Source: Escherichia coli
GTDB lineage: Bacteria; Pseudomonadota; Gammaproteobacteria; Enterobacterales; Enterobacteriaceae
Strand: one strand, 5' to 3'
DNA: 64,000 nucleotides
Assembly (NCBI RefSeq): GCF_044647545.1
Contig: NZ_CP172818.1
The position numbers and the translations under genes are program-made. Positions 15,312 to 38,588 of the stretch are shown piece by piece. Below the pieces are notes generated by a model. That model did no database searches, had not been told where the DNA came from, and worked only from the letters and a program-made list of their open reading frames with translations. Numbering within the stretch: position 1 is the first letter of the stretch; the number at the start of each line of letters is the position of its first letter.

Positions 15312-15536
15312 CTATGCGACTGCCGCTTCTACTTCGACGGGCACAATAACACTGGCGTGATTGCCTTTTGGCCCCTGGTGGACATCAAACTGAACGGATT
15401 GTCCAGCTTTTAGCGTTCTGTAACCATCCATCTGAATGGTGGAATAATGAGCGAAAATATCTTCGCCGCCGCCTTCAGGGCAGATGAAACCAAACCCTTT
15501 GGCATTGTTGAACCACTTAACAGTACCCTTTTCCAT
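15312..15536 (-). CDS. cspD: cold-shock-domain protein CspD (stationary-phase replication inhibitor)
   Basis: ORF 15312-15566; start at MEKGTVKWFNNAKGFGFI (74 aa); RNP1-like KGFGFI motif. Confidence 0.9.
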   Translation of the reverse strand: MEKGTVKWFNNAKGFGFICPEGGGEDIFAHYSTIQMDGYRTLKAGQSVQFDVHQGPKGNHASVIVPVEVEAAVA

Positions 15537-15858
15537 GCTTCGACATCCTTCGCAAATCTTATACAAGTAAGATGGAATAAACCGGGGTCAGAGAGGGGGC
15601 TGTTCAAAACCTCGCCAACTCTAGAAATACAATTTAGAGAATTAGGGCGAGCCGTCAAGCATTTGACAGGGGCCAGGGGGCAGGTATGAATCAAAAATTT
15701 GAAGCAGTTAACGCTATTGACAGGAATGTGACAGATGTCGCTGATGCCAACGATAGATGATAGTTATCTATCATGTGGAGTAGATTGGTCAGGCAAATAA
15801 GCTCTTGTCAGCGGCAGGGCGTTCTGCCGATAACCGTAACCGAAGATGATAACTGACA

Positions 15859-16179
15859 ATGGGTAAAACGAACGACTGGCTGGACTTTGATCAACTGGCG
15901 GAAGAAAAAGTTCGCGACGCGCTAAAACCGCCATCTATGTATAAAGTGATATTAGTCAATGATGATTACACTCCGATGGAGTTTGTTATTGACGTGTTAC
16001 AAAAATTCTTTTCTTATGATGTAGAACGTGCAACGCAATTGATGCTCGCTGTTCACTACCAGGGGAAGGCCATTTGCGGAGTCTTTACCGCCGAGGTTGC
16101 AGAAACCAAAGTGGCGATGGTGAACAAGTACGCGAGGGAGAATGAGCATCCATTGCTGTGTACGCTAGAAAAAGCCTGA
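15859..16179 (+). CDS. clpS: ClpS adaptor for ClpAP (N-degron recognition)
   Basis: 106-aa ORF immediately upstream of clpA; recognised sequence. Confidence 0.92.
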
Positions 16180-37968: not shown

Positions 37969-38588
37969 TGCTTCGTTAACGTGTCATAACTGGTCATCAA
38001 ATTACGATAATCAGGAATATGGTTAGAGAACAACGTCGCCAGTCCTTCAATATCATTACGCCAGTCGCGATGCAGCTCGCACGCCACGCCGAACCATGTC
38101 ATCAATTGCGCACCAGCTTGCGACATGCGATCCCACGCCGAATGCCGGGTAATTTCATTAAAGGTCCCTGACGCGTCAGTCACGACAAAGACGTCAAACC
38201 CTTCTTCAATGGCTGAAAGCGCCGGGAATGCCACGCAAACTTCGGTTACCACACCGGCAATAATTAACTGTTTTTTACCTGTCGCTTTGACAGCTTTTAC
38301 AAAATCTTCGTTATCCCAGGCGTTAATATTTCCCGGGCGAGCAATGTAAGGTGCATCGGGAAACTGTGCTTTCAGTTCTGGAACTAATGGGCCGTTAGGA
38401 CCGGTTTCAAAACTGGTGGTAAGAATAGTAGGTAAGTTGAAATACTTAGCCAGGTCACCCAGCGCCAGCACGTTATTTTTAAACTTATCGGGTTCGATAT
38501 CCCGTACAAGGGAAAGTAAACCAGCCTGGTGATCAACAAGCAAAACGGCAGCATCATTTTTATCAAGACGAACATACGGTTTGGTCAT
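37962..38588 (-). CDS. ycaC: isochorismatase-family hydrolase YcaC
   Basis: 208-aa ORF; cysteine hydrolase family sequence recognised. Confidence 0.85.
   Translation of the reverse strand: MTKPYVRLDKNDAAVLLVDHQAGLLSLVRDIEPDKFKNNVLALGDLAKYFNLPTILTTSFETGPNGPLVPELKAQFPDAPYIARPGNINAWDNEDFVKAVKATGKKQLIIAGVVTEVCVAFPALSAIEEGFDVFVVTDASGTFNEITRHSAWDRMSQAGAQLMTWFGVACELHRDWRNDIEGLATLFSNHIPDYRNLMTSYDTLTKQK

Follow-up and report, generated by a model that had tools for sequence, protein, structure and literature searches.

The sequence studied here lies in the intergenic region between the divergent genes cspD and clpS, within a 64-kb stretch of Escherichia coli DNA that we refer to as the window; adding 907,054 to a window coordinate gives the MG1655 coordinate (NC_000913.3). 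The genes and repeats of the locus are as follows.

15312-15536, minus strand: cspD, with its transcription start site (TSS) at 15622, a -10 hexamer TAAATT at 15631-36 and a -35 hexamer TTGACG at 15653-58
15686-15760, plus strand: yljB (b4770), annotated, encoding a 24-aa small protein
15752-15756, plus strand: an extra copy of GATAG, preceding the left arm of the palindrome
15757-15763: left arm of the palindrome, ATGATAG, one half of a perfect 7-bp inverted repeat
15768-15774: right arm of the palindrome, CTATCAT, the other half of that repeat
15859-16179, plus strand: clpS, from the gene annotation

The sequence CGATAGATGATAGTTATCTATCAT was found upstream of clpS as the original prediction had described it, and the placement given there also held: the palindrome is in the divergent cspD/clpS intergenic region, with 85 bp between the end of its right arm and the clpS ATG (15859). 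Its two arms are separated by the 4-bp spacer TTAT. The repetition of GATAG also creates a second, overlapping perfect 7-bp inverted repeat, GATAGAT/ATCTATC. By itself, a 7-bp palindrome is not beyond chance here, because the window contains 85 perfect 7-bp inverted repeats with spacers of 0 to 10 bp (eight of the perfect 7-bp repeats in the window have a spacer of exactly 4), compared to 43.6 ± 5.9 in composition-preserving shuffles. The significance of the palindrome rests instead on other evidence, namely, its conservation and its exact coincidence with an integrase att core.

A feature absent from the original prediction is that the left arm contains the end of yljB: both the TGA stop codon (15758-60) and a following in-frame TAG (15761-63) fall inside it. 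YljB belongs to the small-protein set of Weaver 2019 and is listed among the small open reading frames (ORFs) validated by Western blotting; a homologue is present in Salmonella. In several genera (among sequences L002 to L210), yljB-like ORFs start in a different frame and a compensating indel restores the frame. These frame-shifted orthologs keep the C-terminal half (NVTDVADxNDR) and stop in GATAGATGA. The Citrobacter equivalent is a 14-codon ORF only. Since the DNA under yljB also carries CRP-like and OxyR-like sites, selection could be acting on the peptide or on the DNA.

Upstream of clpS, we assembled the mapped and predicted regulatory features below.

15698-15713: CRP-like site TTTGA-N6-TAACG, centred at -83.5 from the cspD TSS, inside the most conserved intergenic block, AAATTTGAAGCAGTTAACGCTATTG
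15727-15742: CRP-like site TGTGA-N6-TCGCT, centred at -112.5 from the cspD TSS, an 8/10 match, conserved
15716-15733, minus strand: PhoB ChIP-seq motif TGTCACATTCCTGTCAAT (Fitzgerald 2023), just upstream of the palindrome
15731-15767: predicted OxyR site ACAGATGTCGCTGATGCCAACGATAGATGATAGTTAT, from a consensus match
15757-15762, plus strand: likely clpS -35 hexamer ATGATA, a 4/6 match with an 18-bp spacer, conserved across genera
15781-15786, plus strand: clpS -10 hexamer TAGATT (TAAATT in CFT073-type strains), 7 nt upstream of the TSS
15793, plus strand: main clpS TSS, from Cappable-seq (U00096.2 922070, score 35.9)

Published maps place the transcription starts at 15793 for clpS and at 15622 for cspD, and the palindrome is upstream of the main clpS leader and outside it, as expected of the regulatory site that had been proposed. 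In Cappable-seq data (Ettwiller 2016), the clpS start is the dominant TSS on the plus strand between the two genes, and the cspD start is that of Kim 2012; coordinate conversion was checked against the gene coordinates of Kim 2012 and the MG1655 annotation. Relative to the main clpS start, the palindrome spans positions -37 to -20. The arrangement is that of a sigma-70 promoter, with a -10 hexamer about 7 nt from the mapped TSS and a -35-like hexamer spaced 18 bp from it, and the left arm of the palindrome likely acts as the -35 region. On the plus strand at this promoter, a generic promoter scanner did not reach its threshold.

Several further observations were made on the two transcripts. 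A strong TSS inside clpS (window 15954, Cappable-seq score 40.9) coincides with an internal start that Kim 2012 assigned to clpA, and a Term-seq 3' end maps near the end of clpS (window 16156; MG1655 923210). The 5' untranslated region (UTR) of clpS (15793-15870) folds at -21.5 kcal/mol (z = -1.9): UGUCAG (15806-11) pairs with CUGACA (15853-58) directly before the AUG, and the paired segments enclose a GC-rich hairpin, CGGCAGG/CUGCCG. An ATAG or ATAA at 15797-15800 is kept across genera; its distance from the ATAG at 15753 is exactly 44 bp. Rfam also gave a match to the cspA thermoregulator on the minus strand (15380-15641) that stayed below threshold, at 29 bits versus a gathering score of 78; it extends over the 5' UTR and the beginning of the coding sequence of cspD, and probably reflects CspA-family homology.

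CRP sites matching the pair at -83.5 and -112.5 are reportedly described for cspD, and the CRP-like site at 15727-15742 is presumably the distal cspD CRP site reported by Uppal 2014. At the PhoB motif, the ChIP-seq peak is weak (MG1655 922786), and neither cspD nor clpS RNA changed significantly in the phoB deletion (Fitzgerald 2023).

Conservation was examined at two depths. Within the species, 4,744 of 5,386 E. coli genomes shared an identical 60-bp stretch around the palindrome. Of the variants, one type was inspected, a CFT073-like sequence with two mismatches; these lie at 15747 and 15783 and leave the palindrome itself intact. Beyond the species, the comparison took in ClpS-upstream regions from other Enterobacterales together with 120 metagenome loci, which were anchored on a conserved block lying outside the palindrome. 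Across genera of the Enterobacteriaceae, the left arm, spacer and following CT (ATAGATGATAGTTATCT) are kept, as is GTAGATT, which contains the clpS -10 hexamer. The block AAATTTGAAGCAGTTAACGCTATTG can be followed as far as Yersinia and Photorhabdus, and TGTGA-N6-TCGCG is among the conserved intergenic elements of the Enterobacterales and metagenome loci; these two blocks correspond to the CRP-like sites at -83.5 and -112.5, respectively. The right arm behaves differently: it is perfect only in Escherichia and reads CTATGAT, CTAATAC, CTGACAT, etc., elsewhere. The conservation analysis suggested for the palindrome thus gave a divided answer, with the left arm plus TTATCT kept beyond Escherichia and a perfect right arm in Escherichia only.

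A subset of E. coli sequences loses identity to the window inside the palindrome itself. The junction found there, which we designate attL, was present at an identical insertion point in 367 of 5,426 complete E. coli genomes (∼7%), in agreement with a count of 368 genomes whose intergenic region is interrupted at the palindrome. All remaining genomes match the attL junction query only up to window 15773. Three carriers (isolate 127, strain 167, and IHE3034) were annotated, and in each a 10.7- to 10.8-kb element lies between yljB and clpS. The element encodes a tyrosine integrase, AlpA, an icd-like gene product, a D5-type primase, Ssb, a capsid or protease-capsid protein, and a small terminase (TerS). 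The integrase has 412 aa, with Arm-DNA-bind_3 (PF13356) and Phage_integrase (PF00589) domains; its gene begins ∼165 bp from attL and is followed by alpA, and the same layout is seen in L214 and L215. A search for a full-length phage matching the element found none. As in phage-inducible chromosomal islands (PICIs), a kind of phage satellite, the size falls within 10 to 15 kb, an int-alpA-primase/rep module runs in one direction, packaging or capsid-remodelling genes are present, lysis and tail genes are not, and there is a dedicated att site. Judged from its sequence, the gene layout is that of a Gram-negative PICI satellite.

Both ends of the element carry a shared core that occurs as a single copy in empty sites (the window and MG1655). 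The attL cores are ATGATAGTTATtTATCAG and ATGATAGTTATtTATCAT, i.e., ATGATAGTTATtTATCA(G/T), and the attR core, ATGATAGTTATCTATCAT, equals the attB of the window, ATGATAGTTATCTATCAT. Identity between attP and attB is 17/18 and covers exactly 15757-15774, ending at the edges of the palindrome; the one mismatch is C/T at 15768. In all cases examined (the class A metagenome contigs and the three genomes with annotation), this position is occupied by the element's T in attL and by the host's C in attR, which places strand exchange to the left of 15768, within the following segment.

15757-15767: ATGATAGTTAT, the segment of exact attP/attB identity and the published att core

This att site has been described before: in a supplementary table, Fillol-Salom et al. 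2018 (ISME J) list two PICIs, EcCIIHE3034 and EcCI18098, with the att core ATGATAGTTAT and the location cspD-clpS, and give EcCIIHE3034 as NC_017628.1 920272-930825. The published left boundary of the IHE3034 island, 920272, is window position 15757, the first base of the palindrome. Taking these comparisons together, the palindrome is very probably the attB core (attC in the PICI literature) of a P4-type tyrosine integrase carried by EcCIIHE3034-type PICIs, located inside the core promoter of clpS-clpA. In the strain analysed here the site is empty and is only a potential target.

Other candidate junctions were less clear. In the IMG/VR contig L216, an attP junction is present, with the P arm, ATGATAGTTATTTATCAT, and the P' arm contiguous; because attR and clpS are found at the end of the same contig, this junction may stem from a tandem insertion or from mixed assembly and not from a cleanly excised circle. 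A match of L217 to the attP pattern was rejected as a chance match in unrelated AT-rich DNA. A second insertion class, in the human-gut metagenome contigs L116 and L185, was judged a probable chimeric assembly. In these two contigs E. coli sequence runs to ...GATAGTTAT and is followed by low-GC DNA encoding the C terminus of a LacI-family protein. They break at the same base as the PICI junction and share this break point despite their probable chimerism. Isolate 127 (L213, 34358-40237) has a second integrase-bearing island just downstream of clpA, where other strains have tRNA-Ser and infA; the cspD-clpA neighbourhood therefore comprises two independent integration hotspots.

The integration that we propose follows from the mode of action of tyrosine recombinases. 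The two inverted 7-bp arms would be two core-type sites, each bound by one integrase protomer, with cleavage at positions that are predicted ones. Strand exchange itself is placed inside ATGATAGTTAT (15757-15767) by the junction sequences. After integration, attL consists of the host left arm and the element's right arm (T at 15768), adjoining yljB and the int gene, and attR of the element's left flank and the host right arm, adjoining clpS. The arms of the element contain direct repeats of GGTGTAGTTAAT and TGTTCG on both sides of the core, and these are candidate arm-type sites for the arm-binding N-terminal domain of the integrase.

This arrangement resembles the core sites of the lambda and P4 families, in which inverted core sites surround a 6- to 8-bp overlap and arm-type sites lie outside: here too, a short central segment lies between inverted arms, the integrase combines an arm-binding N-terminal domain with a catalytic C-terminal domain, repeats occur in both arms of the element, and int is beside attL. 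For P4-family integrases the usual target is the 3' end of a tRNA gene. In contrast, the PICI integrase considered here appears to target a promoter dyad. The locus and the core ATGATAGTTAT are those of EcCIIHE3034 and EcCI18098, with the window holding the unoccupied form. However, where the table of Fillol-Salom et al. 2018 gives an 11-bp core only, the segment shared by attP and attB here is the whole 18-bp dyad with one C/T mismatch. The dyad also falls on the clpS -35 region and spacer, takes in the yljB stop codon, and overlaps a predicted OxyR half-site.

The OxyR prediction came out of a comparison with known E. coli factors. The classical consensus used for the scan, ATAGnTnnnAnCTAT-N7-ATAGnTnnnAnCTAT, is said to go back to Toledano 1994. 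At 15731-15767 the match is 15/20, the only one of at least 14 in the 64-kb window. Its promoter-proximal half, ATAGaTgatAgTTAT at 15753-15767, overlaps the palindrome, and the extra GATAG supplies the first element, ATAG, which is conserved in Enterobacteriaceae orthologs. We consider it somewhat more probable than the reverse that oxidised OxyR binds 15731-15767, with the proximal half-site over the -35, and activates clpSA during H2O2 stress; such binding is compatible with att-site use of the same DNA.

The four-element ATAG/CTAT motif is that of the oxyS, katG, ahpC, grxA, and dps promoters, and the best consensus matches in known promoters of the MG1655 OxyR regulon score 13 to 17, a range that includes the 15/20 of the clpS site. 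A position weight matrix (PWM) built from seven sites ranks the clpS site third among 63,964 positions, at 11.4 bits, versus 5.9 to 25.9 bits for known sites in leave-one-out scoring. In orthologs the same register scores 12 to 15/20, and it is the best or joint-best match in most of the Enterobacteriaceae orthologs that keep the ATAGATGATAGTTAT block. The literature lists clpS (formerly yljA), or clpSA, as OxyR induced: induction was 4.1-fold in an Hpx- strain, and H2O2 upregulated a reporter for the clpS promoter. As in OxyR-activated promoters, the predicted site lies upstream of and touches the -35 of an OxyR-induced gene. However, at -62 to -26 from the TSS at 15793, it is about 11 bp nearer the start than canonical activated sites such as those of oxyS (ending at -38) and ahpC (-37), a difference that counts against OxyR binding as predicted here. 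RegulonDB held no site for yljA as of 2014. The distal half overlaps the conserved CRP-like site, which alone could account for conservation there. The right arm is unused in the OxyR register (ATAG-N7-TTAT, formed by the extra GATAG and the spacer), so the 7-4-7 dyad is left unexplained by OxyR. Two alternative registers were rejected: a shift by -11 to the canonical spacing gave no more than 10/20, and a register starting at 15753 gave 13/20 but would cover the -10 hexamer. Within the window, the small OxyR PWM scored highest at 38268-38304 (CTGTTTTTTACCTGTCGCTTTGACAGCTTTTACAAAA, 14.3 bits).

With the right arm outside the OxyR register, other readings of the dyad were weighed. One is that the palindrome acts in RNA: in a longer transcript of yljB and clpS it would form a hairpin at the yljB stop, with effects on termination, stability, or translational coupling between the two genes. 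A distant clpS TSS at window 15306 (Kim 2012) would transcribe yljB together with the palindrome, so that longer transcripts may read through both; the stem contains the yljB stop, and the folding energy of the 32-nt RNA is -9 kcal/mol (z = -2.6). In its 139-nt context, however, the sequence folds no better than shuffles (z = -0.5), and the main clpS TSS at 15793 is downstream of the palindrome. An Rfam search gave no match at the palindrome, and the lack of a U-tract, of a terminator call, and of any Term-seq 3' end in the region led us to reject an intrinsic terminator or attenuator. The right arm varies among genera while the left arm shows no compensatory changes, which argues against an RNA stem. 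We therefore regard the hairpin as improbable. Another reading is an operator for another dimeric repressor, Fur-like or TetR-like, or an iteron. The palindrome bears a superficial likeness to GATAAT-type Fur hexamers and to TGATAG/CTATCA tetO half-sites, and clpSA function has been linked to iron pools in the literature. Against the Fur box GATAATGATAATCATTATC, however, the best match at the palindrome is 11/19, short of a criterion of about 13/19 and below the background of the window, which holds 128 matches of at least 12. The tetO-like match is likewise 11/19, with half-sites in the opposite orientation. No MqsA palindrome (ACCT-N2-4-AGGT) occurs in the intergenic region, and no good match to a DnaA box was found. 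The original prediction had also considered an iteron-like site; this suggestion was abandoned, since there are just two GATAG copies where an iteron array would have at least three regular repeats, the neighbours are cspD, yljB, and clpS, and no rep gene or origin is present. Operators of these kinds, and an iteron, are highly improbable.

Of the motif comparison proposed at the outset, the OxyR consensus is what remained, at 15/20 and overlapping the palindrome but off its 7-4-7 register; Fur, MqsA, DnaA, and tetO gave no convincing match. The idea of a dimeric regulator's operator survives in part: the sequence is a protein-recognition dyad in a regulatory region, but the comparative evidence points to a PICI tyrosine integrase and not to a transcriptional regulator as the protein that recognizes the dyad. 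From the motif matches, a regulator probably also binds at the palindrome region.

The integrase attachment core and the host functions of the same bases are not exclusive. Genera in which no insertion was seen also conserve the left arm and spacer. In genera lacking a perfect dyad, conservation of these parts is explained by host function, as a promoter and, probably, as an OxyR site. Use as an att site is a secondary use of a sequence that the host maintains for its promoter and probably for OxyR, not the origin of that sequence. A mobile element can in this way use a target dyad that is fixed in the host by the promoter constraint on the left arm.

The 18-bp segment holds four overlapping features: the core for satellite integration, a promoter -35, the likely half-site of a stress regulator, and the stop codon of a small gene. 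Each of these components is already in the literature or annotation; what is new is the explicit overlap of their functions and a prediction of regulatory rewiring. Since the bases of the att core are also those of the -35 and of the predicted proximal OxyR half-site, integration moves the distal OxyR half-site, together with the CRP and PhoB sites, 10.8 kb from clpSA. The match to the OxyR consensus at attR is 11 to 12/20, versus 15/20 at the empty site. We tentatively suggest, as a possibility that we rate well short of probable, that PICI integration uncouples clpSA from peroxide induction in the ∼7% of E. coli that carry the island and, conversely, that OxyR or RNA polymerase at attB could gate integration by redox state. 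The prediction is that island carriers such as IHE3034 have lost or altered OxyR control (peroxide induction) of clpSA; if true, this uncoupling would change the control of iron pools under oxidative stress in carriers. The gain is mainly one of annotation: a formerly unexplained palindrome is now fully annotated in a model genome.
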